The notes below the pieces were generated by a model. It ran no database searches. It had not been told where the DNA came from and was given only the letters and a program-made list of their open reading frames with translations. From the sequence record MZ726793.1: a stretch of DNA of 64,000 bases. One strand, 5' to 3'. A program made the translations under genes and the position numbers. Below, one piece after another: positions 8,872 through 63,169 of the stretch. This DNA is from Escherichia phage vB_EcoM_ASO2A. The stretch's first letter is position 1, and every line of letters begins with the position of its first letter.

Positions 8872-8876
8872 AGCCA

Positions 8877-9332: not shown

Positions 9333-9344
9333 AAGGGGAATGTT

Positions 9345-9782: not shown

Positions 9783-9809
9783 TGTTTCGCACAACGAAAG
9801 GAGAATAAG

Positions 9810-10355: not shown

Positions 10356-10532
10356 ATGGCTACTTTTCAACAACTGAAAGATGTTTCACGTTTAGTAAGA
10401 AAAATCCGAGAAGCAGACGCTGCTGTGCGGAATGCATTAACGCCAGCAGAGCGTGAAGATCTTGAAGAGGAGGTGAAAACAGCCGAGAATGCTTTTGCTG
10501 TGTATCTTTCAACACTGTATACAGGAGGTTAA
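10356..10532 (+). CDS. hypothetical protein (58 aa)
   Basis: SD aaaggag then ATG 10356. Confidence 0.5.
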   Translation: MATFQQLKDVSRLVRKIREADAAVRNALTPAEREDLEEEVKTAENAFAVYLSTLYTGG

Positions 10533-10847: not shown

Positions 10848-11038
10848 TGTTTAGTTTCTTGGTGATTGTTATGGTTGTTCTTTTCGCGGCATGGCTTTGG
10901 GATTTTGACCCAGGAGCAGCGCAGCAAAGAGCTACAGACTGGAAAGAACAATGTATTGTGCTCAAACATGAACGAAATGCGGAGAAATTTCTTGACCTGG
11001 AGTGTGATCGCCTTGTAAGATACAAGCAAGATAAATAA
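10838..11038 (+). CDS. small membrane protein (66 aa)
   Basis: SD caggagg; MPIVFSFLVIVMVVLFAAWLW. Confidence 0.55.
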   Translation: MPIVFSFLVIVMVVLFAAWLWDFDPGAAQQRATDWKEQCIVLKHERNAEKFLDLECDRLVRYKQDK

Positions 11039-11052
11039 CCTTGAGGTGCAAA

Positions 11053-11241
11053 ATGGTAATTGAGATTAAACTTGAATATGCTGGGGCTGTTGCCCTGATC
11101 GCACAAATGTTGGGAGCAAAGATTGAAGAAGTGTGTATCAATGCCTGGAGTGTAGAGATTAATGTTCCTATGGATAACATTGCTAATCGCTTGCTGGTAG
11201 CAGAGTGTGAACGCACCAACATAATCTACAAAGGAGCATAA
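11053..11241 (+). CDS. hypothetical protein (62 aa)
   Basis: SD gaggtg. Confidence 0.5.
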   Translation: MVIEIKLEYAGAVALIAQMLGAKIEEVCINAWSVEINVPMDNIANRLLVAECERTNIIYKGA

Positions 11242-11242
11242 T

Positions 11243-11464
11243 ATGAAAATTAGAGTTTGTGATGTATTGGGTTATGTTGGTTTTGAGAATGTTCAGATTC
11301 CTTTTGTTGTTGAAGCACATCTTGTTAGCGATGACATGACAACATTCTTTGTTACGATAGAAGAAATGTCCAAAGTTGAGGGATGGGAGTGGTTTGAAGA
11401 AGATGTTTGGGAAGGTTGTGATTACGTATTTTTCTCTGACGAAGTGAATATTCTTGCGGAGTAG
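11243..11464 (+). CDS. MKIR/DYVFF small-protein family, copy 2
   Basis: SD aaaggag; paralog of 7305-7526. Confidence 0.6.
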   Translation: MKIRVCDVLGYVGFENVQIPFVVEAHLVSDDMTTFFVTIEEMSKVEGWEWFEEDVWEGCDYVFFSDEVNILAE

Positions 11465-11466
11465 GT

Positions 11467-11673
11467 ATGTCTTGTTTTACAAAAGCAGTGTCCATATGTA
11501 AGAAACAATATGAAAGTGATTACGGAATATTTAATATTCCAGTAGATCATACAGAGTATTGTTCATGTGGTGGCAGAATGAAGAAAACAGTGATTTATGC
11601 GGATAATGGAGATGAACTTGTTCCGGTTGTGGTTTGCAAAGCTTGTCATTCTGTTAAAACATTAAAAGCGTAA
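11467..11673 (+). CDS. small cysteine-rich (zinc-ribbon-like) protein (68 aa)
   Basis: CSCGG ... CKACH. Confidence 0.5.
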   Translation: MSCFTKAVSICKKQYESDYGIFNIPVDHTEYCSCGGRMKKTVIYADNGDELVPVVVCKACHSVKTLKA

Positions 11674-23785: not shown

Positions 23786-24586
23786 TTATTTGTTTAAGTG
23801 GTCTTCGACCATTTTAATGAAACCTTCATTGCTGAAGGCTGTTGCAGCTTTTTCTCGGTAAACAAAAACTCCACGATCTTCATAGAGAAGTGTTTCTTCG
23901 TAATTAACTCCAGGGTTAACTACAACCATTTTTGTCCCGATATTAAGAGCAGGAAAAAGCTCCCAGTTAAAATTGATAACTTGATTAGAGCAACCCACTA
24001 CAATCACCATATCTTGAGCCGTCAAGCCGTCTAAGATGTGGTACATATCGTTATACAATGGGGCAGTCTCCCCAAAGAACACTACATTGGGCTTCACATA
24101 CTTGTAATCATCCACATCGATAGCAGCATAGCCAACATCTTTGATGATTCTATTGTCTACGATCACTTCAGGCAGGAAGCCGTGAACATGTAGAACATCT
24201 TCATGAACAACACCCGCTTGTTCCAGAAGATCATCTACGTTTGTCGTGATGTTGATAACACGATCACAGCCGTACTCTTGAAACCATTCCGCGATCTGGT
24301 AATGCGCAGCGTTAGGAGACACACTATCCATCTCTACGCGACGTTTATTGTAGAAGTCATGAGTTTTACGGTAGAGGTTGTATCCCTCTGCATCTAATCC
24401 ACCAACAGCGCCAGGAACACACTGTTCTTGCTGGTAGCCAGCACGGAAATTGAAAATGTCACACACTTCAGAAAGGTCGTATTCATCCCACAAAGCTTTA
24501 CCACTTTCTGTGTCAGTGCGGAAAGTACGAATACCGCTATCGGCGCTTAAGCCAGCGCCGCTAATCACTATTAATCGTCTTGGCAT
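23786..24586 (-). CDS. SIR2-family NAD-dependent protein (deacetylase/NADase-like), no zinc ribbon (266 aa)
   Basis: SD gaggagg. ISGAGLSADSGIRTFR, TTNVDDL, LHVHG, KPNVVFFGE. No CxxC pairs between the HG and FGE motifs. Confidence 0.8.
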   Translation of the reverse strand: MPRRLIVISGAGLSADSGIRTFRTDTESGKALWDEYDLSEVCDIFNFRAGYQQEQCVPGAVGGLDAEGYNLYRKTHDFYNKRRVEMDSVSPNAAHYQIAEWFQEYGCDRVINITTNVDDLLEQAGVVHEDVLHVHGFLPEVIVDNRIIKDVGYAAIDVDDYKYVKPNVVFFGETAPLYNDMYHILDGLTAQDMVIVVGCSNQVINFNWELFPALNIGTKMVVVNPGVNYEETLLYEDRGVFVYREKAATAFSNEGFIKMVEDHLNK

Positions 24587-30194: not shown

Positions 30195-30503
30195 TCAACA
30201 AGTAATTTCAAAAGGTGTATAGGGTTCCGTATTTCTCATAATCCAAGGACTGCTAGGATTGCTCGGATCATAAGGACCAAAAGGTTTTATGGTAGGTTGT
30301 GTTTCTTTCTTCTGAATCTCTTCAAAAATACGACGAAGTTCAGAATATTCTTGATCCACCATAAGATTCGGTGCATCTGATTCTACAGTTTGCAGGTTAT
30401 CTTCCTTAAGAACAATCTCACGAACAAGATTAACATCTTCTGTTTCTAAGATAACTTCTTTACGGATATTACCTACACTTTGAATAATTGTAATTTTATA
30501 CAT
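30195..30503 (-). CDS. hypothetical protein (102 aa)
   Basis: SD tgaggagg, TAATG overlap. Confidence 0.6.
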   Translation of the reverse strand: MYKITIIQSVGNIRKEVILETEDVNLVREIVLKEDNLQTVESDAPNLMVDQEYSELRRIFEEIQKKETQPTIKPFGPYDPSNPSSPWIMRNTEPYTPFEITC

Positions 30504-31246
30504 TAATCCTCCTCAAGAGTTGAATAAAATTGAAGACCACCATCCATATCGAAATAAGCAAATGTTAAGTTATTATTGAACACAGATCCAGTATCCATAT
30601 AAACACGATTCGCATTGATAATAGGTGTTTTTACATAAGAGTGTCCATGAAACACATAATCCACACCCATCACAACAGGAAGTTTCATTCCCTCTTTAGC
30701 ACAGTCTACCATATCTCTGTCCCACATAAGTGCTTCAGCAAAACGGTTTTCCTGTGTTTTTGTCATCTTCGAAATGTATTCTGGAAGATCTGTTACAGGG
30801 AGATATTCCAAAGAAGATGGATACCCACCATGAATAAACGCAAGTTTCATGCCTCTGTAGTTAACAATGAGAACAACAGGTAAATCTTCTGTCATCATTG
30901 CTAAGGCTGTAGCTCCTTCTTCACCACATTCTTCAAATACCGTATATCCTCCATTTTGATACCAACACTCGTAGTAGCTACGATCTCCTTCCAGCATACC
31001 TTTAATCATCATGTCTTCATGATTGCCACGAATAGCGTAGCGATTGTGTTTACGAGTAAATTCTAAAACACAACGAAAGTTTTGCTTTCCACGATCAGTA
31101 AGATCTCCTAAAGATACAACTACATCTGTATCTCGGATACCTAACTTTGCCTTTCCTTTTTCATACAGATTATAACAACCATGTAGATCTCCAATTATAA
31201 AAAGGTCTTGATCGCTTTTAACAGTAATTTCTCTATGTATGATCAC
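30503..31246 (-). CDS. Ser/Thr protein phosphatase (lambda PPase-type metallophosphoesterase)
   Basis: GDLHGC, GDLTDRG, RGNHE, HGG, GH motifs; SD gaggagg then GTG. Confidence 0.9.
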   Translation of the reverse strand: MIIHREITVKSDQDLFIIGDLHGCYNLYEKGKAKLGIRDTDVVVSLGDLTDRGKQNFRCVLEFTRKHNRYAIRGNHEDMMIKGMLEGDRSYYECWYQNGGYTVFEECGEEGATALAMMTEDLPVVLIVNYRGMKLAFIHGGYPSSLEYLPVTDLPEYISKMTKTQENRFAEALMWDRDMVDCAKEGMKLPVVMGVDYVFHGHSYVKTPIINANRVYMDTGSVFNNNLTFAYFDMDGGLQFYSTLEED

Positions 31247-36521: not shown

Positions 36522-36782
36522 TTACTCCGCAATTTGAGCCATGAGATCACGCAGTTCGGTAAAACCGCCTACGTATGTTACCTCCCCGTTCACTTCGGAC
36601 AGAATTTGTGGAAATGTGCGTGGAGGAACTCCGGTAAGATCAACAACTGTTTTAGTCATTGATTCTAAATCATAGTCTTGATCAAGACTTAAATATTCAA
36701 ACTGTTTATTGCGCATGGTTAATAGTTGTTTTGACATTTCACAAAATTGACAGTTAGGTTTACCAAAAATTACAAATTCCAT
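36522..36782 (-). CDS. glutaredoxin / NrdC-like thiol-disulfide oxidoreductase (86 aa)
   Basis: FGKPNCQFCEMSKQLL (CxxC), ..TFPQI..., GGF..L; TAATG coupling to rmlD. Confidence 0.8.
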   Translation of the reverse strand: MEFVIFGKPNCQFCEMSKQLLTMRNKQFEYLSLDQDYDLESMTKTVVDLTGVPPRTFPQILSEVNGEVTYVGGFTELRDLMAQIAE

Positions 36783-37624
36783 TACCTCTCCTTATTAAGT
36801 AATACTGCTAAAGACTGTTCAATACCTTTATTTAAATCTGATTTTGTAAGATAGTGACTGGTTACTAGTTGTGACTTCACCGGACGTGCTGCTGGAGCAT
36901 TATAGGTTGAAGCTGATACCGCCGATATCTTAACAGGTTCTGGCATCTGTGTCAAGATCTTTTCCGCAAACTCCGCCCAAGAAATAAGATGGCTTCCTGC
37001 AAAATGGTAAGTCTTAACAGACCTTGACCAACCTGTTTTTAATACTTCAAAAATAGCTTCTGCTAAATCTGGAGCATATGTTGGACAAGAGAACTGATCA
37101 GCAACAATAATAAAATCACGTTGTCCATCATTATAGCGAGACAACATGGTTTTTAGAAAGTTATTTCCAAATTCGCTATATACCGAGGCTGTTCGAATAA
37201 TATATGCATTTGGGTTAACTCCTCGCACCATTTTTTCACCAAGTTCTTTCGTATACCCATAATTGTTTATTGGGTTAGGTGTAGTATCTTCAAAAATAGG
37301 ATGAGAATAATTAAAAATATAGTCTGTAGAAATATGCACAAAATCAATTTTAAGTTTGCTGCACACTGCCGCAATATTTGCAGGTCCATACGCATTAACA
37401 GCCAAAGCAGTAGCAAAATCATGTTCTGCTTTATCTACAGCCGTATAAGCGGCGCAATTAATAACACCATCTACATAATCTTCAATAATAGCGTTTCGCA
37501 CAGCTTCAAAATTTGTAATATCTACACGTTCTTTAGGATAAATTAAAGATACATTTGAAGGAGCCACTTTACGTAAAGCTTGTCCCAGTTGTCCATTACC
37601 GCCCAATACCAGATATGTTAGCAT
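36782..37624 (-). CDS. rmlD: dTDP-4-dehydrorhamnose reductase
   Basis: LVLGGNGQLGQAL Rossmann N-terminus, 280 aa, position after rmlC, overlapping start. Confidence 0.9.
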   Translation of the reverse strand: MLTYLVLGGNGQLGQALRKVAPSNVSLIYPKERVDITNFEAVRNAIIEDYVDGVINCAAYTAVDKAEHDFATALAVNAYGPANIAAVCSKLKIDFVHISTDYIFNYSHPIFEDTTPNPINNYGYTKELGEKMVRGVNPNAYIIRTASVYSEFGNNFLKTMLSRYNDGQRDFIIVADQFSCPTYAPDLAEAIFEVLKTGWSRSVKTYHFAGSHLISWAEFAEKILTQMPEPVKISAVSASTYNAPAARPVKSQLVTSHYLTKSDLNKGIEQSLAVLLNKER

Positions 37625-38184
37625 ACACCCTCGCTACGTAACTGTTGAAAAGATTTAGCCATTGCATCTTTTGTTGATAGAATAGGTTTAAAACCTTCGT
37701 CAAAAATCATATCGAAGCCCCAATCGATCCCTATATCAGGATCATCCCAACGTAAACTTTGTTCACTAGAAGGGTCGTATGGAGTTGTGCATTTGTATTC
37801 AAAGATAGCATCCATACTCAAAACTATAAAACCATGAGCCAAACCAGGCGGAAGCCAAAACTGCGTATGGTGTCGTGCACGAAGAACAACACCGTCCCAA
37901 GCACCGTAAGTTGGACTATCTTTACGTAAATCTACAGCGAAATCCAATACTTCCCCACTTACACAACGAACTAGCTTACCTTGCGGGTTATTTGTTTGAA
38001 AGTGCATTCCTCGCAAAACACCGAAGTTTGATTTAGACATGTTATCTTGAACGAAAGTTTGTCTACCAATAATATCTTCGTATTTTTGTTCATTATATGT
38101 TTCTAGAAAGAAACCACGATCATCTTTATAAACGTCTGGTTTGATAATTACCGCACCTTCAATTTTTGTTTTTTCTACTTTCAT
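37618..38184 (-). CDS. rmlC: dTDP-4-dehydrorhamnose 3,5-epimerase
   Basis: start ATG 38184 (ATGA overlap with the rmlA stop); [50 protein letters not shown]. Confidence 0.9.
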
Positions 38185-39059
38185 TTTCTCTCCGCTAATT
38201 TGAGTAGGTATTGCCCGTACTCTGTTTTCTTCAGTGAGTTTCCATGATACACCAAAGTCTCTAAAGAAATCCACCCTTTTTTGAAAGCAATTTCTTCCAG
38301 GCACGCAATCTTCAATCCTTGACAGTTCTCAATAGTCTGCACGAATTGACCAGCTTCCATCAGACTGGCGTGTGTTCCTGTGTCAAGCCAAGTAAATCCT
38401 CGTCCGAGAACTTCCACTTGTAACTTCCTGTCTTCTAGGTAGCTGCGATTGATATCAGTGATCTCCAGTTCTCCACGCGCGGAAGGGGTTACTTCTAATG
38501 CACGTTGAATAACAGAGTTATCATAGAAATACAAACCTGTGACAGCATAATCTGATTTAGGATTTTCAGGTTTCTCTTCAATAGAAATAGCTTGACGATT
38601 ACTCCCAAATTCAACCACACCGAATCGTTCAGGATCTTTCACCAAATACCCGAAAATACAAGCTCCGCCCCAAACATCTACCATCTCACTGGCGTTAATC
38701 AGTAGTTTACCAAAGCTTTGTCCGAAGAATAGGTTGTCACCTAAAATAAGAGCAACAGAGTCTTCTCCGATAAAATCTTTACCTATGATGAAAGCTTCCG
38801 CAAGACCTCGTGGCTCGGATTGGATTGCGTAAGTGAGTTTTATCCCAAACATAGACCCATCTCCGAGAAGATACTCAAAGTCTTCCTGATCACCTGGTGT
38901 GGTGATGATTAAAATATCCTTAATGTCAGCCAACATCAATACCGATAAAGGGTAGTAGATCATGGGTTTGTCATACACAGGGAGCAATTGCTTGCTCACA
39001 CTGCGTGTTACCGGATGAAGGCGGGTTCCGCTTCCTCCCGCCAAAATAATACCTTTCAT
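38181..39059 (-). CDS. rmlA: glucose-1-phosphate thymidylyltransferase
   Basis: [37 protein letters not shown]. Confidence 0.95.
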
Positions 39060-39067
39060 AACCCTCC

Positions 39068-40060
39068 TTAAATTTTCTCACTCCACCATTGAGGGTTGTT
39101 TAAGTACCATTCAATCGTTGAGTAGAGATCTTGTTCAAATGTAGAGTTTGCACTCCAGCCCAGTTCAGACTCTATCTTAGAAGGATTGATTTCATAACGC
39201 AAGTCATGTCCTTTACGATCTTCAACAAAAGTTATCAAGTTGGAAGAAGGGTAGGTTACTGCTTCTGGATGTACAGTATCCATATAGTCACAAACCATAT
39301 AGATGATCTCCATATTGGTTTTGGGATTACGTGTTCCAACATTATACGTTTGACCTGGTTCTCCACCTGTTGCCACTTGAAGAATAGCTCGCGCATGATC
39401 CTCAACAAAAAGCCAGTCTCGCACCTGGTCGCCTTTACCATACACCGGAATCTCTTTATTCGTCAAGATACTTGTGATGATTTTTGGGATCAGCTTTTCT
39501 GGATGTTGATAAGGCCCAAAGTTATTGGAGCAGTTGGTTATCACAACAGGCAAATCGTAGGTGCGGTGCCAAGCTTTCACAAGATGGTCAGATGCCGCCT
39601 TAGACGCACTGTATGGGCTTGAAGGGGCATAAGCTGTCTCTTCGGTAAAAGGAACGCCAGAGTCTGCCATATCGCCGTACACTTCGTCTGTGGAGACGTG
39701 TACGAACATCTTCAGTTTATTTTTTGGGAGGAGCCTTGCAGCTTCCAATAAATTGTATGTACCAATAATATTGGAGTCAATGAAAACTCGTGGATTCTTG
39801 ATAGAATTATCCACATGACTCTCTGCCGCTAAGTGAATGATGAAATCGGGATTGCACTCTACTACTAAACTTTTGACCTGGGTTTCGTTTGCCAAATCTG
39901 TCATGCTTAGTTTAATGTGAGTGATATCGCCTACATTCTCAATATCTGCTGCATAGCCCATCTTATCAACGACAAAAACTTCGTTATTAGGATCTTGACA
40001 AAGAGAGCGCACCACGGCACTCCCAATAAAACCAAGACCACCTGTTACCAGATAGCGCAT
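39068..40060 (-). CDS. rmlB: dTDP-glucose 4,6-dehydratase
   Basis: [30 protein letters not shown]. Confidence 0.95.
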
Positions 40061-51803: not shown

Positions 51804-52529
51804 TTACTTGTTAATAATACCTGCAATATTAGGTTTGACAAAGGTCGATGGTTTCATGATCTTACCTTTATCATCAAAGAACACATACACTTTCTGTTTT
51901 TCATTATAAACAGCATGAACACCAGTGTATGCCCCTTCTGGACGATTGGCATTTCGTTCTTCAATTGCAGCGCATTCTTGTGCAATGGCTGAATCGATAT
52001 CCGAAGTTTTCCAAGTTTTCAGCAACTGTTGTTTAGTTGGATACTTGGAATCATTACTTTTCAATACCTCTTTAATAACTTTCTTTTCTGGATATTTTGA
52101 ACGGATTAGAGTGTCACGAGACATACGCATAATACCAGCAGCCATTAGTGCCATTTGAACTGGCTCTGTAAATGTTTGTTCCAAAGCATCAAAATCAGTA
52201 TACACAGTTGGAGTAAAAACATCGCCTACAGCATAGTCCAAGAAATTCATCGTATGTTCTTCACCAAAGAACATGTAAGTCAGATAACTGGATACTACAA
52301 AAATATCCGCTGCTGCATCCAAGAGTTCTACATGATCGTTTACTTTCGCGGCTGTTTCATACTCTTTAAGCTCTTCACGAACGAACCCGATTTGGGACAT
52401 AAATAACTCTTGAGTGAATTCAGGTTGTTCACCACCTCGTGCTTTGGCATTCCAATCAATTACGTGCTTTGCTGCATTTTTGAAAAATTCAGTATCGAAT
52501 TTAATATCTTTAAAAAAATTCTCGATCAT
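51804..52529 (-). CDS. MazG-like all-alpha NTP pyrophosphohydrolase (241 aa)
   Basis: REELKEYETAAKVNDHVELLDAAADI fits an ExxE...ExxD signature. Confidence 0.45.
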   Translation of the reverse strand: MIENFFKDIKFDTEFFKNAAKHVIDWNAKARGGEQPEFTQELFMSQIGFVREELKEYETAAKVNDHVELLDAAADIFVVSSYLTYMFFGEEHTMNFLDYAVGDVFTPTVYTDFDALEQTFTEPVQMALMAAGIMRMSRDTLIRSKYPEKKVIKEVLKSNDSKYPTKQQLLKTWKTSDIDSAIAQECAAIEERNANRPEGAYTGVHAVYNEKQKVYVFFDDKGKIMKPSTFVKPNIAGIINK

Positions 52530-52538
52530 TATAACTCC

Positions 52539-52721
52539 TTATTTAAAATAGCTTTCTAGAAAGTTGCTAATATTTACTACAGACTCACCCATGTAAATCC
52601 CTGCGAAACCGAAAACAAGCATACGTGGAATATTGAAATACCATTTATCTGCCGGAAAAGATGCCAGAATTACAATAGCAATTGCTATCAACATCATAAG
52701 AATTGTTGCTAAAATTATCAT
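52539..52721 (-). CDS. small membrane protein (60 aa)
   Basis: SD tggagg; two hydrophobic helices. Confidence 0.55.
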   Translation of the reverse strand: MIILATILMMLIAIAIVILASFPADKWYFNIPRMLVFGFAGIYMGESVVNISNFLESYFK

Positions 52722-52774
52722 AAAAATGCCTCCAGGTATTTTTCACAATGATAAGCTAAGAACATTTTTCCTCC

Positions 52775-53890
52775 TTATTCTGCTGGTTCCCAAGTGCCTG
52801 GGATCATTTCTCGAATACGAACACCAACAGGTTTTGTTGGAATACCTTCATCTGAAAATTCTTCATACTCTATTTCAACGAACTGATTAATCAAGGTAGA
52901 AGCATTCTCTGCTTTACGATAATTGATAGTCTCATGAGCATCTTTACGCATTAAGAATTCGACTACTTTACCATTTTCCATCTCGCCTGTCAACACTCCA
53001 TCACCATTTTTATCACTTTTTGAATTTATTACTTTAACTTCAAGCGTATGACGAGGCTTACGTTTAATAACATCATAAGAACGTTTATCAAATTCGTAAA
53101 CTCCGTGAGCATTACGATATACTACACCTTCAGCTTTCTCAAGTAAAGCTTTTTCATAGAAAGCATCAAACTGTTCTTGGTTTTCAATATACTCTGTATG
53201 AACTACACAAATAAGCTCATCAAGACCATAATCCTCCACTACTGCCTTAAGAGCAGTAAGAACATCAACACGTTTTTCAAACGGTAGATCTGGAACTGGA
53301 ATATCGTATACGTAATAGTTCAGCAAAGGTGTATTTGCATTATGCTTCTTCCAGGCACTGTTAATTTGTTGTAGACTAAGGACACCTAACCCAGCAAACA
53401 CTTCACCATCAAGAGGATGACCAACAACTTCACTAATAAAGTTTGGAATACCTTTCCAATGAGGTGGCAGGTTATACACTTCCCCAGCTTTTGATAAACA
53501 CTCCCCTTTCATGTTAATCATAGAACGTAACCCGTTCAGTTTGTATTGTGCATAACCAGGGAACACAACCCTTTCAGGATAATCTTTATAATCCTGGCAT
53601 TTCATTGGTGTGGAAGGAACATGGTTTTCAGCTTCTTCTTTTGTTTTATAATAGCCATTCTTTAACTGTTTTGTCCATTTGGCAAAAGCTTCAAGTTCAG
53701 CTTGTTCTTCCGGTGTTGTTTCATTGGAACGACCAATGTTTTTTGCTTCTGCTGTATAAGATTTTTCTGTGATTTTTCCACCTACCCTTCCATGAGCTAC
53801 AGTAACAACTGCACCATCTGTATACACTGTCCACTGTTTAAGTTTTCCTTTTGAATCTTTACCATACAGCGTTTGATTTGTTTGTTGCAT
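52775..53890 (-). CDS. ATP-dependent DNA ligase (371 aa)
   Basis: start ATG 53890 (TAATG overlap, GGAGGA upstream). QYKLNGLR (motif I with N for D), LDGEVF (III), YYVYD, AEGVVYR (IV), VIKRKP (V). Confidence 0.8.
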   Translation of the reverse strand: MQQTNQTLYGKDSKGKLKQWTVYTDGAVVTVAHGRVGGKITEKSYTAEAKNIGRSNETTPEEQAELEAFAKWTKQLKNGYYKTKEEAENHVPSTPMKCQDYKDYPERVVFPGYAQYKLNGLRSMINMKGECLSKAGEVYNLPPHWKGIPNFISEVVGHPLDGEVFAGLGVLSLQQINSAWKKHNANTPLLNYYVYDIPVPDLPFEKRVDVLTALKAVVEDYGLDELICVVHTEYIENQEQFDAFYEKALLEKAEGVVYRNAHGVYEFDKRSYDVIKRKPRHTLEVKVINSKSDKNGDGVLTGEMENGKVVEFLMRKDAHETINYRKAENASTLINQFVEIEYEEFSDEGIPTKPVGVRIREMIPGTWEPAE

Positions 53891-54111
53891 TAGTCCTCCC
53901 ATTTAAAAACTGAAATTTTCAATCTGTTACACACTTCATCCAAATCTGCGTCGAGTAACGTTGTAGATGTTGCCAACATATAATCAATGCTTGTGAAACC
54001 TTGCCCTTTGGCATAGTCAAACATATCTTCATACATATCTTCAAGATCACCGTCATCAAAAGTAGCTAGAAAATCCTCGTCCCCACTACGAACATAAAAT
54101 GCAGTACTCAT
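53890..54111 (-). CDS. hypothetical acidic protein (73 aa)
   Basis: ATGA overlap. Confidence 0.5.
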   Translation of the reverse strand: MSTAFYVRSGDEDFLATFDDGDLEDMYEDMFDYAKGQGFTSIDYMLATSTTLLDADLDEVCNRLKISVFKWED

Positions 54112-54296
54112 TCATCTTCATCCCAAGATTCAAAAACGCAGCAATCATCGGTTTCTATAATACCAACACGTCCGCAGGTATTGCAAGTGATTTTATCACC
54201 GTAGAATAAATAATTTTTATCACCCTCTGTGTTTACAGAGATTTCATGACTGCCACAAGGACAAGTCAGCCAATCAACAACGATATCTTTTTTCAT
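54108..54296 (-). CDS. zinc-ribbon protein (62 aa)
   Basis: SD taaggaggg; CPCG ... CNTCG. Confidence 0.55.
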   Translation of the reverse strand: MKKDIVVDWLTCPCGSHEISVNTEGDKNYLFYGDKITCNTCGRVGIIETDDCCVFESWDEDE

Positions 54297-54305
54297 AATC
54301 CCTCC

Positions 54306-54632
54306 TTAAGCGTTCAGTTCGTTGTTGAGTTCGTAAATCTCTTCTTGAAGAGCATCAATCTCTTCCTCCAAACGGGAGATCTCTTCTTTTAGATATACCA
54401 TTTCTGATTCTTTCTCTTCTAACTCATTTTCAAATTTTACTTTATTCGCCTCATTTTCATAATGGAGTTCAGCGTAATCATCGCGCATTTGTTCAATAAG
54501 ATGAATCAGAGACAAGATGTAATTATCTCCCGTTTCATCACGCCATTCTTCACCGTGGCGGAGAACGGTAATTCGTCCAGTATCTTCATCTAAAATTGTC
54601 TCATATTTACGATCATCTGTATAAATCTGCAT
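54306..54632 (-). CDS. hypothetical coiled-coil protein (108 aa)
   Basis: SD taaggag. Confidence 0.55.
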   Translation of the reverse strand: MQIYTDDRKYETILDEDTGRITVLRHGEEWRDETGDNYILSLIHLIEQMRDDYAELHYENEANKVKFENELEEKESEMVYLKEEISRLEEEIDALQEEIYELNNELNA

Positions 54633-54641
54633 TATTACTCC

Positions 54642-55046
54642 TTATTGAAGTTTAAGTGAACCACGAAGACGTTTCTCTTGCTGATCACGAATATATTGTG
54701 GAACCTCGTGAATTGAATCATTACCGTGCCTATTTTCAACAACTAAAGAGATAACTTGATAACCAAACTCTTCAGCAAGAGTTAGATAAGGTTTAAGTTC
54801 TTTCTCTGTGGTTGAAGTGTTAGAAACAATAATCTTGTTAAGATTAGATGCCATAGCATCACGAACAATACTCTGACACCATGCGTGTGCTTTACCTACG
54901 TTTTCTGGCTTCCAATCGTAAACACCACTTTCTGTGTAATGATATTGATCTGCCTCACAGATAGGCCAATAACCTTCAGAAATAATTTCTGCTACTGTAG
55001 ATTTACCAGCACCTGAAACGCCACGTAAAATGATAAGTTGTTTCAT
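54642..55046 (-). CDS. P-loop polynucleotide 5'-kinase-like protein (T4 Pnk kinase-domain-like, 134 aa)
   Basis: LILRGVSGAGKST, EADQYH, IIVSNTSTTEKELKPYLTLAEEFGYQV parallels T4 Pnk [45 protein letters not shown]. Confidence 0.6.
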   Translation of the reverse strand: MKQLIILRGVSGAGKSTVAEIISEGYWPICEADQYHYTESGVYDWKPENVGKAHAWCQSIVRDAMASNLNKIIVSNTSTTEKELKPYLTLAEEFGYQVISLVVENRHGNDSIHEVPQYIRDQQEKRLRGSLKLQ

Positions 55047-55979
55047 TTATCCTCCAAAGAAGTTTTCGATTTTTTCACGTCGCTCCTGCTGATTTAAAGC
55101 AGCCCATTGAGTCTTCGTAAAATTATTTCGAATCCATTCTAACAAAGCGTAATATTCTTCGTCAACAATTTGTTTGGCATTTTTTGGATTATCCCAAATC
55201 AGATCCCACTTTTTATCTCCACCACGCATAAGAAACTTCTTAGTAAGATAGTGTGGTGATTTAATTTTTAAAAGTAAGTTGAACGGATAGTTTGTTTCAC
55301 GAACTACAAATCCTTCGTGTTTACAATGTTTAGACATTTCAACAACATCTGAAAACTTAACCATTGGATGAACTTCAGGACGCTTAAATTTGGTGACAGA
55401 AGCAATTCCATCAAGAGCACCTTCAGGTAACATAAAACTTGTCCCATCAGGATTTTGAATTCTGGCACCAATTAAGTATGCACCTGGTTCTTCTTCGACA
55501 ATATGCGGATCAGAAGGATCACAGATTTCAAAAAGGAAAGTTGCTTTTGCACTCTCTATCCATTTGATGAAATGTTCTATGTCATCACACTCTGAAATAA
55601 TATGATTCTTTGCAATACTTGCAAAATCTGATTCAAGGCTTCCTGTTGTCGATACAATAAGTTGACCTTTATATACACCTACAGAGGCCATAAAACCATT
55701 TACTTTACGAACCACATCTACAAATTCATCCGCTGGTAGATCTGTGCCATTCTCAAAACGATTAAAAATCTTAGTGAAAGGCCAAATAACAACATTGTCA
55801 TCATCGTCAACAACGATTCCGCGACATTCTAGAAGACGAGAATCAATGTTCCACAGGTTATCCCAGAAAACTTTGTTCTTATACTTAAGAACAGATAGAC
55901 CAGAATACTCTCCTTCTTTATATGTTTTCTTATGAACTAAACCTTTTTCAACCAAATCGTCGCAATTAAATTTAGCCAC
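55047..55979 (-). CDS. Rnl1-type RNA ligase (310 aa)
   Basis: LECRGIVV and PFTKIFNRFE parallel T4 Rnl1 LECRGIMF/PMEKFFNLNE; RKVNGFM as the nucleotidyl-lysine motif; GTG start after aaggagag. Confidence 0.7.
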   Translation of the reverse strand: MAKFNCDDLVEKGLVHKKTYKEGEYSGLSVLKYKNKVFWDNLWNIDSRLLECRGIVVDDDDNVVIWPFTKIFNRFENGTDLPADEFVDVVRKVNGFMASVGVYKGQLIVSTTGSLESDFASIAKNHIISECDDIEHFIKWIESAKATFLFEICDPSDPHIVEEEPGAYLIGARIQNPDGTSFMLPEGALDGIASVTKFKRPEVHPMVKFSDVVEMSKHCKHEGFVVRETNYPFNLLLKIKSPHYLTKKFLMRGGDKKWDLIWDNPKNAKQIVDEEYYALLEWIRNNFTKTQWAALNQQERREKIENFFGG

Positions 55980-55980
55980 A

Positions 55981-56532
55981 TTACTCTCCTTTGATTATTT
56001 TGTGATGGTCTACAGTTACGATATCTCGTTTACTCATCATAGAAATTATCTCATCAAAATGTAAGATTTTTCCGTGTGCATCCCAACCCACATCTAACAT
56101 TTTACCATAAGCTTCATCAGGGAAAGATCCGTGGGAATGCCCGTGTAGCATGATTGATCCACGACCTTGCTTATTCCAGGAGGCCATAGGGTAATGGCTT
56201 AAGACGAAGAACAGCTTCTGATATTTCACTTCGTCATAATACACCACTTCTCCATACTCTGCAAGCACTTCTCGGTGTTTGCTGTAATCATGGTTCCCAA
56301 CACAATAAGTGATATCCCCTTGGAGGCGGGAAGCAATCTTACGGGTATCTTCTTCAGTCCCGAAACAGAAGTCACCCAAATGCCACATCTTGACACCTGG
56401 ACTCGTAGCGCATTTATTCCATGCTTCGATCAGTGCTTCTGTCATGTGGTCCATATCTTCCCACGGTCGATATTCAGGAGCAAACTCTCGTATACGTTTG
56501 TGCATAAAATGCAAATCACTTGTAATAAACAT
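55981..56532 (-). CDS. calcineurin-type metallophosphoesterase (183 aa)
   Basis: SDLHFMH, LGDF, VGNHD, LHGHSHG. Confidence 0.8.
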   Translation of the reverse strand: MFITSDLHFMHKRIREFAPEYRPWEDMDHMTEALIEAWNKCATSPGVKMWHLGDFCFGTEEDTRKIASRLQGDITYCVGNHDYSKHREVLAEYGEVVYYDEVKYQKLFFVLSHYPMASWNKQGRGSIMLHGHSHGSFPDEAYGKMLDVGWDAHGKILHFDEIISMMSKRDIVTVDHHKIIKGE

Positions 56533-56888
56533 TAGTATAATCCCTCGCTAAATAGGTCACGATCATGACCATTACGTTCGTAGTCAATCTGGTCTGCGTG
56601 TTTTGCAATAATGTATGCATCTTCACGACTCCACCAATTGTAGTATTGATCAATAAAACCTTGATTGTTTGGAAGACAATGCACTTTATCAAGCACACCT
56701 GCTTCTTTCAATACATTCAATTGTGCTGATAATATAGGATTTGCATGTCGAACACAAGGAATAATTAACTCTTCACCATTTTTCAGAATATATTTATTCG
56801 CAGCACAGACGATAACACGTTGCGCATAATGACCCTCACCAATCCAGGTAAGAGGTTGGTAACAAATATTGTTTTCAATACCACTCAT
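56532..56888 (-). CDS. hypothetical protein (118 aa)
   Basis: coupled to the downstream gene (TAATG). Confidence 0.55.
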   Translation of the reverse strand: MSGIENNICYQPLTWIGEGHYAQRVIVCAANKYILKNGEELIIPCVRHANPILSAQLNVLKEAGVLDKVHCLPNNQGFIDQYYNWWSREDAYIIAKHADQIDYERNGHDRDLFSEGLY

Positions 56889-56894
56889 TGTTTC

Positions 56895-57038
56895 CTAATC
56901 CTCCTCTCTTAAGTTATCCTCGATAAAACTAGTATCTGGAAGTAAAAGATCATTACTTGTGTCGGGCCAATCCTCTTCTTCTCGGTAGATAAAATAACCT
57001 TCGTCCTCTTCTTGTTCCGACCAAACCGAATGATGCAT
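56895..57038 (-). CDS. 47-aa acidic peptide
   Basis: not in track; SD aaggagag; MHHSVWSEQEEDEGYFIYREEEDW... Confidence 0.4.
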   Translation of the reverse strand: MHHSVWSEQEEDEGYFIYREEEDWPDTSNDLLLPDTSFIEDNLREED

Positions 57039-57047
57039 GTTCTCTCC

Positions 57048-57404
57048 TTAATAGTGCACACGAATCATTTTAATACCATAACGCAGCATGGATTCTTTTG
57101 CAAGCATGAATTTATCCCCAGCGGCTGGATTAGAAGTATGCACGAAAATGGTAGGTGAACCAAAGCAAGGTTTACCAAACGCCAGAAGTTCTTCCAGGCA
57201 CAGGAAAACATCATACCCATCTTGGTCAGAATCTTCACCCAAATCGTTGTCAAAATGCCACTCGTCTACAAAACGATAACCCTTCTGCACCTCATTCATG
57301 TAGCGAGAGGCAAGAAGTTCCTGTGATGTTTTAAACCAGATTGCATCTGGACAACCATAATCTTTTGGATCACGTAAATCATCAAGCCAAATAATAGTAC
57401 CCAT
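57048..57404 (-). CDS. receiver-like domain protein, possibly the cyclic-phosphate-processing REC family seen in RNA-repair loci (118 aa)
   Basis: IIWLDDLRDP, WHFDNDLGE, VHTSNPAAG; assignment from memory of the motif pattern only. Confidence 0.3.
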   Translation of the reverse strand: MGTIIWLDDLRDPKDYGCPDAIWFKTSQELLASRYMNEVQKGYRFVDEWHFDNDLGEDSDQDGYDVFLCLEELLAFGKPCFGSPTIFVHTSNPAAGDKFMLAKESMLRYGIKMIRVHY

Positions 57405-57414
57405 ATAACCTCCT

Positions 57415-57885
57415 CTAAGCTGGCATGATTAAAAAAGAACTCTCCACTTCAAAATGCCAATCATCTACAAGCCCTGATTCCCAATCCTTCTCTTCATGGA
57501 AAGAGCAAATCCAACGGTACATACCTGGCGGTGTATTCTCAACATCTTCTGGCAACCCGTAATCCAAAGCTGTCAAACCGTTCTCTGTAAAACTAGAATG
57601 GAGATTAGGAGCTTTCAATACAGAAACCCTGCCTCCAACATCTACAGCCACAATCCACTCTGTCATGTATGGGCTGTCATATTGAGGCTCATCAGAACCT
57701 ACCTCAACAGCCTCTGTGCGTAAGATGATAAGAGGCTGCTCTGTGATTGGGGCTTTGACAATATACCCGTGATCCTCAAAAAGATCGATAACCTCGAACT
57801 CATCGCCGTTTTCGACACCATAACTCTTATTCAAAGAGATAAACTTCGGGTTATCATCGTAAGCTTTAGTTACTTTAATTCTCAT
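57415..57885 (-). CDS. hypothetical protein (156 aa)
   Basis: SD gaaggagg. Confidence 0.6.
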   Translation of the reverse strand: MRIKVTKAYDDNPKFISLNKSYGVENGDEFEVIDLFEDHGYIVKAPITEQPLIILRTEAVEVGSDEPQYDSPYMTEWIVAVDVGGRVSVLKAPNLHSSFTENGLTALDYGLPEDVENTPPGMYRWICSFHEEKDWESGLVDDWHFEVESSFLIMPA

Positions 57886-58088
57886 TTTTCCTCCTTCACT
57901 TTAACCTCAAATTCTACAGGCTTACCCTCAATGTAAAAACACTGATACTCTGCCTTATCATCCTCATCACGAGGCCAAGTTACCAAGGAGTTATAGCAAT
58001 CTTCTGGTGTTTTGAAGATGTTTTTAGTCTCCACAGTAACATTCCCATTAAGTGTTGCCAATACCACCCACCCAGCTACAGGGATCAT
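57882..58088 (-). CDS. hypothetical protein (68 aa)
   Basis: ATGA overlap, ggagg upstream. Confidence 0.5.
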   Translation of the reverse strand: MIPVAGWVVLATLNGNVTVETKNIFKTPEDCYNSLVTWPRDEDDKAEYQCFYIEGKPVEFEVKVKEEK

Positions 58089-61156: not shown

Positions 61157-61231
61157 GGCCCTGTAGCTCAATGGGAGAGCTGTCGGCTCATAACCGATAG
61201 GTAGCTGGATCGAAACCAGCCAGGGCCACCA
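61157..61231 (+). tRNA. tRNA-Met (CAT), CCA encoded
   Basis: acceptor GGCCCTG/CAGGGCC, anticodon loop CTCATAA, T arm GCTGG-ATCGAAA-CCAGC. Confidence 0.85.
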
Positions 61232-61233
61232 AC

Positions 61234-61308
61234 GTCTTTATGGTGTAATGGATAGCACAGGAGTCTTCTAAACTCTTAGTCAAGGTTCGATTCCTTGTAA
61301 AGACACCA
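61234..61308 (+). tRNA. tRNA-Arg (TCT), CCA encoded
   Basis: acceptor GTCTTTA/TAAAGAC, loop CTTCTAA, T arm CAAGG-TTCGATT-CCTTG. Confidence 0.85.
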
Positions 61309-61309
61309 G

Positions 61310-61492
61310 AACATTTTAACATGAATTAGCTCAAGTGATTTGAACCCACTACTGATCATGGTGGCAGAGAATGAGGCAAGTATGTCAGACATTATAAACA
61401 AAGGCCACGGTTATATTAGAAGACATAAATGCTCGAAGAGCACCGTTCGTGGAGAACGGGGTTGGTGGAGTCACCATTCATGGTAAAATGTT
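61310..61492 (+). ncRNA. about 180-nt structured non-tRNA RNA
   Basis: 17-nt closing stem AACATTTTAACATGAAT (61310-61326) / ATTCATGGTAAAATGTT (61476-61492), 16 of 17 paired; internal hairpin CCGTTCgtggaGAACGG. Confidence 0.45.
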
Positions 61493-61503
61493 TTAAAAAA
61501 CTA

Positions 61504-61533
61504 TTGACAACTAACATTATTTTATGTTAGATT
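61504..61533 (+). promoter_or_regulatory. tRNA-operon promoter P2
   Basis: aaaaCTATTGACAA, 18 nt, TGtTAGATT; inverted repeat CTAACAT/ATGTTAG at 61511-61530. Confidence 0.6.
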
Positions 61534-61541
61534 ATAAGTAT

Positions 61542-61632
61542 GGAAGGGCAAATCGACGTGGCGACGAAAACGGTCTTGAAAACCGCCGAGCTTGAAAGAG
61601 CCTTGGGAGTTCGACTCTCCCTCCTTCCGCCA
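61542..61632 (+). tRNA. tRNA-Ser (TGA), type II
   Basis: acceptor GGAAGGG/TCCTTCC, G73, loop CTTGAAA, long variable arm GCTTgaaaGAGC, T arm GGGAG-TTCGACT-CTCCC; D arm atypical in my hand fold. Confidence 0.75.
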
Positions 61633-61637
61633 GATTA

Positions 61638-61723
61638 GGTAGATTGGTGAAATGGTAGCCACGACAGTTTGCTAAACTGTAGTCGGAAACGGCGTGTAGG
61701 TTCGAGTCCTACATCTACCGCCA
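61638..61723 (+). tRNA. tRNA-Ser (GCT), type II
   Basis: acceptor GGTAGAT/ATCTACC, G73, loop TTGCTAA, variable arm GTCGgaaaCGGC. Confidence 0.85.
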
Positions 61724-61853
61724 AGTTCTTTTTAATATAGCTTACTTTAGCAGAGTAAATCTTCGGCAAGTGGCGGTAACCACTTTACCGATAACTCATA
61801 GTTAGTGGTGTGAACACTGGCTATTTTAAAAAGAATTTAAATATTAGTATTTA

Positions 61854-61941
61854 GGTGAGTTAATTCCGTAGGGGTAGCGGGGCAGACTGTAAATCTGTTA
61901 TCATTGCGATTCGGGTGGTTCGACTCCATCACTCACCACCA
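61854..61941 (+). tRNA. tRNA-Tyr (GTA), type II
   Basis: acceptor GGTGAGT/ACTCACC, A73, GCAGA-CTGTAAA-TCTGT as in E. coli tRNA-Tyr; D-arm junction atypical. Confidence 0.8.
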
Positions 61942-61947
61942 AATTAA

Positions 61948-62033
61948 GATGAGTTGGCTGAATGGTTTAAGCGGCGGACTGTTAATCCGTGTTCGAAAGA
62001 ACGATATAGGTTCAAATCCTATACTCATCGCCA
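61948..62033 (+). tRNA. type II (long variable arm) tRNA with GTT (Asn) anticodon and G73
   Basis: acceptor GATGAGT/ACTCATC, D stem GCT/AGC, GCGGA-CTGTTAA-TCCGT, variable arm GTTCgaaaGAAC+gat, T arm ATAGG-TTCAAAT-CCTAT. Confidence 0.6.
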
Positions 62034-62040
62034 GAATTAT

Positions 62041-62117
62041 GGACTTGTAGAGTTAAGGTAAACCCCCAGTCGCCAAGAGGCTTCTGGAATTGCAGGTATC
62101 GAATCCTGCCGAGTCCC
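62041..62117 (+). ncRNA. tRNA-like element without an anticodon loop
   Basis: acceptor GGACTTG/CGAGTCC, D arm with GG, T arm GCAGG..CCTGC (8-nt loop). The anticodon arm is replaced by CCAGtcGCCaagaGGCttCTGG. No CCA. Confidence 0.35.
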
Positions 62118-62123
62118 AGCTTT

Positions 62124-62198
62124 GCTCCTATAGTATAATGGCTATTACAACGGTTTTGTAATCCGTGGATCTCTGTTCGATTCAGAGTGGGAGCACCA
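62124..62198 (+). tRNA. tRNA-Thr (TGT)
   Basis: acceptor GCTCCTA/TGGGAGC, loop TTTGTAA, T arm CTCTG-TTCGATT-CAGAG. Confidence 0.8.
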
Positions 62199-62473
62199 AC
62201 ACAACATTAAGGGCACTGTGATTGATCGTCGTATCCTGTGCACAAGGTCTGTTCGAAAGACAGTGTTCTTAGTATTGTGTTGATCACACAAAAAGAGTTA
62301 CCTGAAACTTGACCGGAGTAGGGTTGGATGGGGCAAAAGAAGAAGCGGCTCTCCCATCGACAGCAACGAAGAATAATATTTGACTTTGGTTTTGTATTAT
62401 TTTAAGTTAGCTTACCGAACGTAGGGCTAGTCACCCAACGGGATACTCGTCACTGTCCCACTCAATAAAACTA

Positions 62474-62503
62474 TTGACAACCAATAGTAAAATGTAGTAT
62501 AGT
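62474..62503 (+). promoter_or_regulatory. tRNA-operon promoter P3
   Basis: aaaaCTATTGACAA, 18 nt, TATAGT 62498-62503. Confidence 0.6.
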
Positions 62504-62524
62504 AAAGATGTAGGGCGTTCTTGG

Positions 62525-62598
62525 TGTAGCGGTAGCATTCCGTCCTTCCAAGTCGGCGGCACGAGTTCGATCCTCGTAGAACGCTCCAAATTATTTAA
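62525..62598 (+). tRNA. tRNA-Gly (TCC)
   Basis: acceptor GCGTTCT/AGAACGC, loop CTTCCAA, T arm ACGAG-TTCGATC-CTCGT. Confidence 0.8.
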
Positions 62599-62678
62599 TA
62601 AAGGGTTGCCAGAAAACTTTCTCTTTTACTCATGGTTTTCTCCTTCTCTCACACCTCTTCTGGTTGCCCTTCATTAAA
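62594..62678 (+). ncRNA. long hairpin RNA with a 43-nt pyrimidine-rich loop
   Basis: arms TTTAATAAAGGGTTGCCAGAA / TTCTGGTTGCCCTTCATTAAA (about 18 of 21 paired); the loop contains TCTCCTTCTCTCACACCTC. Confidence 0.45.
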
Positions 62679-62686
62679 TGATTTAT

Positions 62687-62762
62687 TGGTTTGTAGTGTA
62701 GTCCGGTAGCACACGACACTTTGACTGTCGTAGGTTTGGTTCAAATCCAGACAGACCAGCCA
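62687..62762 (+). tRNA. tRNA-Gln (TTG)
   Basis: U1-A72 acceptor TGGTTTG/CAGACCA, G73, loop CTTTGAC. Confidence 0.8.
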
Positions 62763-62855
62763 TATAACAAAGGTGAGTCACTACCTCAAGTGTGAAGTTA
62801 AAAACGAGGAGCCGCCGAACACTTTCTTTTGCGGTGTACCTTTAGAATGTTATGA

Positions 62856-62932
62856 CGGAATTTAGCTCAGTTTGGTAGAGTGTACGCTTTGGGAGCGTAT
62901 TGTCGCAGGTTCGAATCCTGCAATTCCGACCA
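62856..62932 (+). tRNA. tRNA-Pro (TGG)
   Basis: acceptor CGGAATT/AATTCCG, loop TTTGGGA, T arm GCAGG-TTCGAAT-CCTGC. Confidence 0.85.
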
Positions 62933-62938
62933 ATTAAA

Positions 62939-63012
62939 TGTTTCGTAGTTCAATGGTAGAACCCACGACTGATAATCGTGAGATACAAGTTCGATTCTTG
63001 TCGAAACAACCA
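62939..63012 (+). tRNA. tRNA-Ile (GAT)
   Basis: acceptor TGTTTCG/CGAAACA, loop CTGATAA, T arm ACAAG-TTCGATT-CTTGT. Confidence 0.8.
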
Positions 63013-63014
63013 GT

Positions 63015-63084
63015 TTCCCGTTAGACTTACAGGATAAGAGTTCCACAATTTATTGTGACGCTGGTTCGAATCCAGCACGGGATA
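63015..63084 (+). ncRNA. tRNA-like element without an anticodon loop
   Basis: acceptor tTCCCGT/ACGGGAt and T arm GCTGG-TTCGAAT-CCAGC are intact. The anticodon arm is CACAA-ttta-TTGTG (4-nt loop). No CCA. Confidence 0.35.
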
Positions 63085-63090
63085 CATAAT

Positions 63091-63169
63091 AGCGGGATAG
63101 AGGAGTCTGGTCGTCCTCGCCAGTTTCATATGCTGGAGATCATTGGTTCAAATCCAATTCCCGCCTCCA
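63091..63169 (+). tRNA. tRNA with CAT anticodon (Met, or Ile2 if lysidine-modified), 1:72 mismatch
   Basis: acceptor aGCGGGA/TCCCGCc, loop TTCATAT, T arm ATTGG-TTCAAAT-CCAAT, CCA encoded. Confidence 0.75.

Follow-up and report, generated by a model that had tools for sequence, protein, structure and literature searches.

A predicted RNA healing-and-sealing cassette of separate small proteins in a phAPEC8-like Escherichia coli phage

Escherichia phage vB_EcoM_ASO2A (sequence record MZ726793.1) is a Phapecoctavirus, a phAPEC8-like E. coli myovirus of the Stephanstirmvirinae, and the stretch of its DNA that we analysed, 64,000 nucleotides (nt) in length, is referred to here as the window. On the minus strand of the window lie six open reading frames (ORFs), found at the coordinates at which a preliminary description of this DNA had placed them, and among them are the genes for a kinase, a ligase, a phosphoesterase and a receiver-fold protein that we treat as a putative RNA repair cassette. 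In the order of their coordinates, with lengths in amino acids (aa), they are:

54642-55046, minus strand: stand-alone P-loop polynucleotide-kinase-like protein, 134 aa (Pfam, PHROG, and profile against the PDB)
55047-55979, minus strand: Rnl1-family ATP-dependent RNA ligase, 310 aa (GTG start, GGAG Shine-Dalgarno)
55981-56532, minus strand: calcineurin-like binuclear metallophosphoesterase (MPE), 183 aa (Pfam Metallophos, PHROG 547)
56532-56888, minus strand: homologue of T4 Arn.3, PF26092 'T4_Y16D', 118 aa (hhalign to T4 arn.3)
56895-57038, minus strand: highly acidic 47-aa protein (PHROG 18323, E 3e-34)
57048-57404, minus strand: cREC, a 'cyclic-phosphate processing receiver' domain protein, 118 aa (Pfam PF20274)

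The ORFs are genuine genes, each with a PHROG family match (E 1e-29 to 1e-71). Escherichia phage PNJ1809-36 is 99.1% identical to the window over 54300-57900, and the region is 94-99% identical in dozens of other Phapecoctavirus records, where the same coding sequences are annotated. The genes are closely packed, with gaps of 0, +1 and -1 nt along the series of kinase, ligase, MPE and 118-aa ORF (56532-56888), and of 6-10 nt from that ORF up to cREC. Four consecutive, translationally coupled genes had been described here; the tight coupling stands, while the genes are not consecutive, since two ORFs separate cREC from the other three. Coupling is real yet not specific to the cassette, because the whole minus-strand run from 58895 to 51804 is equally tight, its gaps ranging from -22 to +10 nt with one exception of 53 nt. 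A scan for regulatory sites gave no excess over shuffled sequence, either for promoter-like sites (37 against 29.5±5 expected) or for terminator-like sites (8 against 5.8±2.3).

Assigning the enzymes to structural families required profiles, as single-sequence searches of the PDB with ligase, kinase and MPE returned nothing or P-loop noise. The kinase matches Pfam AAA_33 (E 4e-10), PHROG 2071 and also the 'polynucleotide kinase' phrog_505, and an exhaustive search recovered 7437 cluster representatives of its family at E<=1e-3, these being stand-alone proteins of ~135 aa. Its Walker A motif (GxxGxGK[ST]) reads G9-V-S-G-A-G-K15-S-T17; across 32 family members conservation is complete at G14 and reaches 90% or more at G9, G12, K15 and T17, and the family has conserved residues of its own at H54/C57, N76-T77, E104-N-R106-H107 and H113. 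The profile of these 32 members has T4 Pnk as its best match in the PDB (1LY1, E 2.3e-8), followed by the CthPnkp kinase (4GP7, 1.5e-7), Pnkp1 (4XRP) and the seryl-tRNA(Sec) kinase PSTK, all of them full-length matches with E values from 2e-8 to 2e-5. In the profile-to-PDB alignment the invariant D33 stands opposite D35 of T4 Pnk, the catalytic Asp that activates the 5'-OH, and the conserved R106 of the E-N-R-H motif aligns near T4 R122/R126 (R126 is the lid Arg) in a part of the alignment that is gapped. The likeness to T4 Pnk proposed in the preliminary description is borne out by these matches, and the concern raised along with it, that proper alignment might reveal a dNMP kinase, came out the other way: adenylate and nucleoside kinases match the profile at the P-loop only, and an identity as a dNMP or nucleoside kinase is unsupported. 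The 134-aa protein consists of a kinase domain only, with no HAD (DxDxT) 3'-phosphatase domain like that of T4 Pnkp found in it. On these alignments it is a P-loop kinase whose closest solved relatives are polynucleotide 5'-kinases, and phosphorylation of RNA is its predicted activity.

The ligase scores 57.3 bits on Pfam RNA_lig_T4_1 (PF09511; cut-off 28.3) and matches PHROG 562 (E 1e-70), and it falls below the cut-off of TIGR02308, the NCBIfam equivalog of T4 RnlA (23 bits against 242). Invariant across 22 homologues are R53, K70/F72, K92-x-N-G95, E151, E222-G223 and K238/K240. Motifs I (K92-V-N-G95), III (E151), IV (E222-G223) and V (K238/K240) correspond to K99, E159, E227-G228 and K240/K242 of the T4 enzyme, and the N-terminal elements specific to Rnl1 are also there, LECRG (R53) and P-F-T-K70-I-F72-N being equivalent to LECRG and PMEKFFN of T4 (R54, K75, F77). 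The best match of the ligase profile in the PDB is T4 Rnl1 (2C5U, E 4.7e-9, residues 52-249), and T4 Rnl1 entries were the only solved relatives found. Aligned to T4 RnlA by hhalign, columns 48-265 pair with residues 48-266 of 374 at 96% probability, and past the end of this alignment (residue 266) the ligase has a short C-terminal tail of ~40 residues. The Rnl1-type assignment made earlier therefore holds at the level of the catalytic domain: the protein is predicted to be a member of the Rnl1 family, and not a T4 RnlA equivalog.

The MPE scores 25.4 bits on Pfam Metallophos (cut-off 21.5) and matches PHROG 547 with E 9e-56. Its metal-binding motifs are complete (D6-x-H8, G53-D54, G79-N-H81, H113 and G131-H132-x-H134), and most of them are invariant in the family alignment (A5). 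Only two PDB structures were matched by its profile, aq_1665 from Aquifex (1XM7, a protein of unknown function; 1.6e-18) and the phosphodiesterase MJ0936 (2.6e-3), and lambda-phosphatase and Pnkp-phosphatase-type structures were not among the matches. A calcineurin-type phosphoesterase with all its metal motifs is thus present as had been proposed; the accompanying comparison with bacterial Pnkp does not stand beyond an analogy of fold superfamily, because the cassette MPE falls in the aq_1665/MJ0936 clade. It is a candidate 2',3'-cyclic phosphodiesterase and/or 3'-phosphatase. A kinase of 134 aa standing alone and a separate MPE of the aq_1665 type agree with the earlier suggestion that end healing is spread here over separate polypeptides, with a different type of phosphatase.

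The receiver-like protein is assigned by Pfam to PF20274 (51.6 bits, cut-off 27; E 1.6e-13), a domain carried by all 53 of the cREC homologues. The LDD, DND and HTSNP motifs by which it was first noticed are present, are invariant across the family, and map to the acidic pair, phospho-Asp, Thr/Ser and Lys positions of receivers, the pocket being formed by D8-D9, D52-N-D54, H89-T-S91-N-P93 and K98. An AF2 model (pLDDT 93.7) has a clear CheY-like receiver fold with the conserved acidic pocket. For all its resemblance to a receiver, the protein is predicted to be an enzyme and not a regulator. The definition of the cREC family goes back to Iyer et al., Viruses 2021 (PMC7824862), and its members have been predicted to act as metal-independent cyclic phosphodiesterases on RNA>p or ADPr>P (PMC7824862, PMC9503650).

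That these genes are functionally linked is supported by their co-occurrence in many unrelated phages, by gene fusions and by displacement of the ligase. We drew 80 diverse viral contigs through the kinase family (34-50% identity) and searched them locally with hidden Markov models, using as a baseline 77 loci chosen through the Arn.3 family. Within 6 kb of the kinase, 41 of the 80 loci have an MPE of the same family, 31 an Rnl1-type ligase and 19 cREC; the corresponding counts in the baseline are 3, 3 and 0. On the same strand and no more than 300 nt from the kinase, the MPE is found in 27/80 loci and the ligase in 17/80. The kinase family is fused to an Rnl1-type ligase in both orders (P0299, P0349), and a protein that joins an MPE N-terminus to a kinase C-terminus exists as well. 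In L034, L036 and L038 (~6650-8180) the pair of MPE and kinase has as its neighbour not an Rnl1 but a ligase of family PF09414, with a PHA02142 OB fold at its N-terminus. L016 encodes a 524-aa fusion of a cassette-type MPE and a PF09414 RNA ligase (8733-10307), adjacent to a separate 378-aa Rnl1-type ligase (10455-11591) with the kinase alongside, so that two ligases occur in one module. The linkage in the kinase sample relative to the baseline, the displacement of the ligase and the fusion of MPE to ligase together suggest that kinase and MPE form an end-healing pair that is portable and acts in concert with RNA ligases. Across the rV5- and phAPEC8-like phages the enzyme genes stay adjacent while their order shuffles, from MPE..ligase-cREC-kinase to MPE-ligase-kinase to an arrangement with kinase and MPE on the opposite strand; the synteny of L001-L016 counts as that of a single rV5/phAPEC8 lineage. 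The genes, in sum, are present and conserved, with intact catalytic motifs and assigned families or folds, and are linked in many unrelated phages.

The same sample bears on how MPE and cREC relate to each other. Among the 31 loci that contain a ligase, 14 have the MPE only, 13 have cREC only, two have both and two have neither. Fisher's test for this mutual exclusivity gives p = 5e-5, a value inflated by relatedness, because 9 or 10 of the 13 cREC-type loci fall in one clade of a neighbour-joining tree of the kinase. That the two enzymes are mostly alternatives in ligase-containing loci is a lead, not a result.

Gene neighbourhoods of this kind have been predicted computationally. Iyer et al., Viruses 2022, described sirtuin-centred neighbourhoods of rV5-like phages that combine ligase, cREC, kinase and MazG with or without a calcineurin-like protein (PMC9503650), the type-2 neighbourhood being that of Escherichia phage V5 / Proteus phage Mydo (PMC9503650), and RNA repair was predicted for neighbourhoods of the rV5/Mydo type (PMC9503650; PMC7824862). 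The same families, namely a T4-like ligase, cREC, kinase, MazG and a calcineurin-like phosphoesterase, occur in the window within 51804-57404 on one strand. Two further genes enter the comparison:

51804-52529, minus strand: MazG-like nucleotide pyrophosphohydrolase (PRA-PH E 2.7e-6; PHROG 671)
23786-24586, minus strand: Sir2-family protein (Pfam SIR2 E 3e-20; PHROG 2162 E 7e-102)

The MazG-like gene is syntenic in L001-L016, and the published neighbourhood type counts MazG among its members (PMC9503650). The product of 23786-24586 is an orthologue of the sirtuin of L005 (phmmer E 1e-103). The rV5-like loci (L004-L009 and L012) are homologous to and syntenic with the window, and in them SIR2 abuts the kinase or cREC, inside the neighbourhood, whereas here it lies 30 kb off. 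The gene order also differs, being ligase-cREC-kinase there and MPE-ligase-kinase here, where MPE and cREC are set apart by the Arn.3 homologue and the acidic 47-aa ORF. Because the Sir2 orthologue is 30 kb away from it, the window cassette is a rearranged member of the computationally predicted kind. In the literature we found no paper that links Phapecoctavirus or phAPEC8 to RNA repair or that tests such a cassette; the concept is already published, however, and our finding therefore extends existing work and opens no new direction.

We think it probable, though well short of certain, that the cassette is a phage RNA healing-and-sealing module carried on separate small proteins. The substrates, the order of the steps, the way in which MPE and cREC share the work and a role against anticodon nucleases are what we infer from the predicted activities. 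An RNA, most plausibly a tRNA, would be cut by a metal-independent host ribonuclease, leaving a 2',3'-cyclic phosphate and a 5'-OH. The 134-aa P-loop kinase would use ATP to phosphorylate the 5'-OH, and the 3' end would be cleaned by the MPE and/or cREC, with cREC opening the cyclic phosphate and the MPE hydrolysing the cyclic and/or linear phosphate to leave a 3'-OH. The Rnl1-family ligase, adenylylated on K92, could then join the 3'-OH to the 5'-phosphate. The distant Sir2 orthologue may strip a 2'-phosphate with NAD+, as proposed for rV5-like phages. Both MPE and cREC may have been kept in the lineage of the window for different end chemistries, or to feed a branch that uses the 2'-phosphate, NAD+ and the sirtuin. 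A more specific idea, which we hold only tentatively and consider rather doubtful, is that cREC is a true healer of RNA 2',3'-cyclic phosphates, a new catalytic use of the CheY fold, interchangeable with MPEs of the aq_1665 type, and that kinase and MPE make up a 'healing duo', widespread and portable, that can be combined with one RNA-ligase family or another.

The closest functional parallel is the T4 pair of PseT (Pnkp) and RnlA (Rnl1), which is directed against the effects of PrrC; the T4 sequence record describes rnlA as acting together with PseT to repair tRNA in prr hosts. Both sets would call for the same reactions, namely phosphorylation of the 5' end, healing of the 3' end and sealing by an ATP-dependent ligase of the Rnl1 family. 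The kinases and ligases are homologous in their catalytic cores, and both sets occur in E. coli myoviruses. Unlike T4 Pnkp, the cassette kinase has no fused HAD-type phosphatase, and 3' healing is assigned instead to the MPE and/or the receiver-fold protein. The tie to PrrC or tRNA-Lys is known for T4; for the cassette it would be conjecture. Bacterial Pnkp, as in the Clostridium thermocellum Pnkp/Hen1 system, likewise combines a P-loop kinase, a metallophosphoesterase and a ligase, and its kinase domain is among the best PDB matches of the cassette kinase. There the kinase, phosphatase and ligase form one polypeptide, whereas here they are separate proteins; the Pnkp phosphatase is lambda-phosphatase-like, and the Pnkp ligase domain belongs to a different family, often called Rnl4. 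No Hen1 is annotated within 20 kb of the cassette, where no search aimed at Hen1 was made. A third parallel comes from fungal and plant Trl1 (ligase-kinase-CPD) and Tpt1. In that system a ligase domain of the Rnl1 family (PF09511) is combined with a P-loop kinase and a cyclic phosphodiesterase (CPD), and a 2'-phosphate is removed with NAD+, much as has been suggested for the sirtuin of the phages (PMC9503650). Trl1 is a single trifunctional protein with a CPD of the 2H type, in contrast to the separate proteins of the cassette.

Several observations weigh against RNA repair as the function of the cassette, beginning with the enzymes themselves. The ligase is 64 aa shorter than T4 RnlA, and most of the C-terminal all-helical domain of T4 Rnl1 (~residues 255-374, 120 aa) is missing from it. 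In T4 this domain confers tRNA specificity; with so little of it left, the cassette ligase need not share that preference. In the kinase there is no counterpart of R38 of T4 Pnk, which contacts the acceptor phosphate; H36 is aligned there, at a position that is F, H or Y in the family. For cREC, the literature states that it is experimentally uncharacterised (PMC9503650), and in 12 distant cREC loci (L017-L028) neither ligase nor kinase nor MPE was found up to 8 kb away; these loci give the module no independent support. Two close relatives (L003 and L010) keep cREC and the MPE and have neither ligase nor kinase. The cassette also sits in a long, uniformly tight run that contains a DNA ligase and genes of nucleotide metabolism as well, so adjacency in this single genome carries little weight. 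Lastly, tRNAs lie within 6 kb in 18 of the 80 kinase loci, a frequency that is the same with and without the ligase and not clearly above background.

The relatives without ligase and kinase, and the distant cREC genes that have no RNA-repair neighbours, favour a different assignment, in which cREC and the MPE (perhaps with Arn.3) act on small molecules and not on RNA ends, and ligase and kinase serve a separate, neighbouring function. cREC and MPE would then process host immune signals, either cyclic nucleotides or cyclic phosphates derived from ADP-ribose. Processing of cADPr or ADPr>P by cREC has also been proposed (PMC7824862, PMC9503650), and the nearest characterised relative of the MPE, MJ0936, is deposited as a phosphodiesterase. 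This reading sits less easily with the roughly ten-fold enrichment of MPE and cREC beside kinase and ligase across diverse phages, where the genes often abut or overlap, or with the fusion of MPE to an RNA ligase in L016, and we regard it as unlikely; the small-molecule and RNA-end roles are, moreover, compatible with each other. The two relatives are IMG/VR contigs whose cREC proteins are 77% and 58% identical, respectively, to that of the window; L010 is also without Arn.3, and both amount to natural partial deletions.

The genes that follow the kinase in the run raise the question of DNA substrates. Beyond the kinase, and before the MazG-like gene listed above, these are:

54108-54296 / 54306-54632, minus strand: pair of ORFs downstream of the kinase, for a 108-aa coiled-coil protein (PHROG 'hol-like chemotaxis'), directly downstream, and a 62-aa protein, zinc-ribbon-like by its CxCG...CxxCG pattern
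52775-53902, in the same run: ATP-dependent DNA ligase, 740 nt downstream of the kinase and three genes on

With this DNA ligase, which is syntenic in most of L001-L016, kinase and phosphoesterase could constitute a PNKP-like DNA-repair set, healing 5'-OH/3'-phosphate nicks for the ligase to seal. T4 Pnk also acts on DNA ends, and the surrounding block is one of DNA and nucleotide metabolism. Outside the lineage, however, the kinase-MPE pair has Rnl1-type or PF09414 RNA ligases as its partners and not DNA ligases, the known kinase fusions are to Rnl1, and in the window itself an Rnl1-family ligase lies directly between kinase and MPE, all of which makes healing of DNA ends quite improbable as the role of the pair. 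The coiled-coil and zinc-ribbon-like ORFs are kept in close relatives only.

The tight packing of the whole strand, and the fact that the synteny of L001-L016 is that of one lineage, might equally reflect early or accessory genes that are unrelated in function and are neighbours by the shared ancestry of a syntenic block, with the ligase perhaps serving mainly in tail-fibre attachment like T4 gp63. Many public records do name the ligase 'tail fiber protein attachment catalyst', a label that is inherited from the annotation of T4 gp63. The linkage recurs, however, in many unrelated viral contigs with other gene orders, fusions and ligase displacement, and all catalytic residues of the ligase are invariant; a chance assembly of this sort seems to us very improbable indeed.

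If RNA repair is the function of the cassette, tRNAs are its most plausible substrates, and the window carries a tRNA bank of its own on the other strand:

61157-63169, plus strand: tRNA bank (10 tRNAs by ARAGORN; 11 by Rfam above the gathering score)
61542-61628, plus strand: tRNA-like element missed by ARAGORN, sub-threshold with 37.4 bits on the tRNA-Sec model (cut-off 47)
61854-61938, plus strand: element missed by ARAGORN and counted among the 11 of Rfam (39 bits, tRNA model); a tRNA-Tyr in the PNJ1809-36 record

The bank comprises Met, Arg-UCU, Ser-GCU, a weak Tyr-like, Asn, Thr, Gly, Gln, Pro, Ile and Met, and neither ARAGORN nor Rfam found a tRNA-Lys in it. The sub-threshold tRNA-like element lies just upstream of tRNA-Ser. 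A tRNA bank about 3 kb from the cassette had been reported in the preliminary description; the bank is real, its distance from cREC is 3.75 kb and it is on the opposite strand. Adjacency of bank and cassette is suggestive at best, and the link from the cassette to the bank and to anticodon nucleases is circumstantial. In an unrelated phage contig of ~104 kb (L017), a cREC gene (7962-8309) lies inside a bank of 22 tRNAs, on the same strand as the tRNAs and between tRNA-Met and tRNA-Gly.

Defences that cut tRNAs are now recognised as widespread, and to our knowledge phages are known to meet them in two ways, with replacement tRNAs and with the repair pair Pnkp and Rnl1 of T4. The cassette would represent an alternative set of repair tools, one that occurs widely among metagenomic phages and is present here in an E. 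coli phage amenable to experiment, and it includes two candidate end-healing proteins, the receiver-fold cREC and the aq_1665-type MPE. Should the RNA repair reading prove true, a published prediction would be confirmed, thousands of phage genes labelled 'ATPase' and 'phosphoesterase' would gain a function, and it would become clear whether repair and tRNA banks are complementary anti-defence strategies.

The two ORFs between MPE and cREC are probably bystanders. The 118-aa product of 56532-56888 aligns with T4 Arn.3 by hhalign at 99.95% probability (E 2e-38) and belongs to a family present in 1612 phage records, with the invariant motifs R-H, Q-G-F-x-D, R and, at the C-terminus, S-E-x-L-Y; its predicted structure is confident and has no fold match in the PDB. 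The gene abuts the kinase in 3/80 of the kinase-sampled loci and stands beside an MPE in L029. In reciprocal sampling, any module gene lies within 6 kb in only 6/77 Arn.3 loci, and for this reason we rejected the Arn.3 homologue as a hidden component of the module and treat it as loosely linked, probably not part of the core. Many public records call the protein 'anti-restriction nuclease', a label that appears to have been carried over from the neighbouring T4 gene arn. The 47-aa acidic ORF was detected in L001-L003, L010, L013 and L014 only, all of them close relatives.

Elsewhere in the window is a second phosphoesterase gene:

30503-31246, minus strand: metallophosphoesterase, orthologue of lambda phosphatase/NinI (1G5B, E 6e-27)

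Its product is another candidate 3'-end-healing enzyme, judged by its matches to be nearer the Pnkp type than the cassette MPE is. It also matches the phosphatase segment of PHROG 8238 (labelled 'RNA ligase'), a family whose first ~109 positions were matched by the cassette kinase. The Sir2 gene has unknown PHROGs and a DNA methyltransferase as its neighbours. At ~36780-40060 on the minus strand, four genes of the dTDP-rhamnose pathway (rmlA, B, C and D-like, by the annotation of PNJ1809-36) adjoin genes for ribonucleotide reductase and thymidylate synthase.

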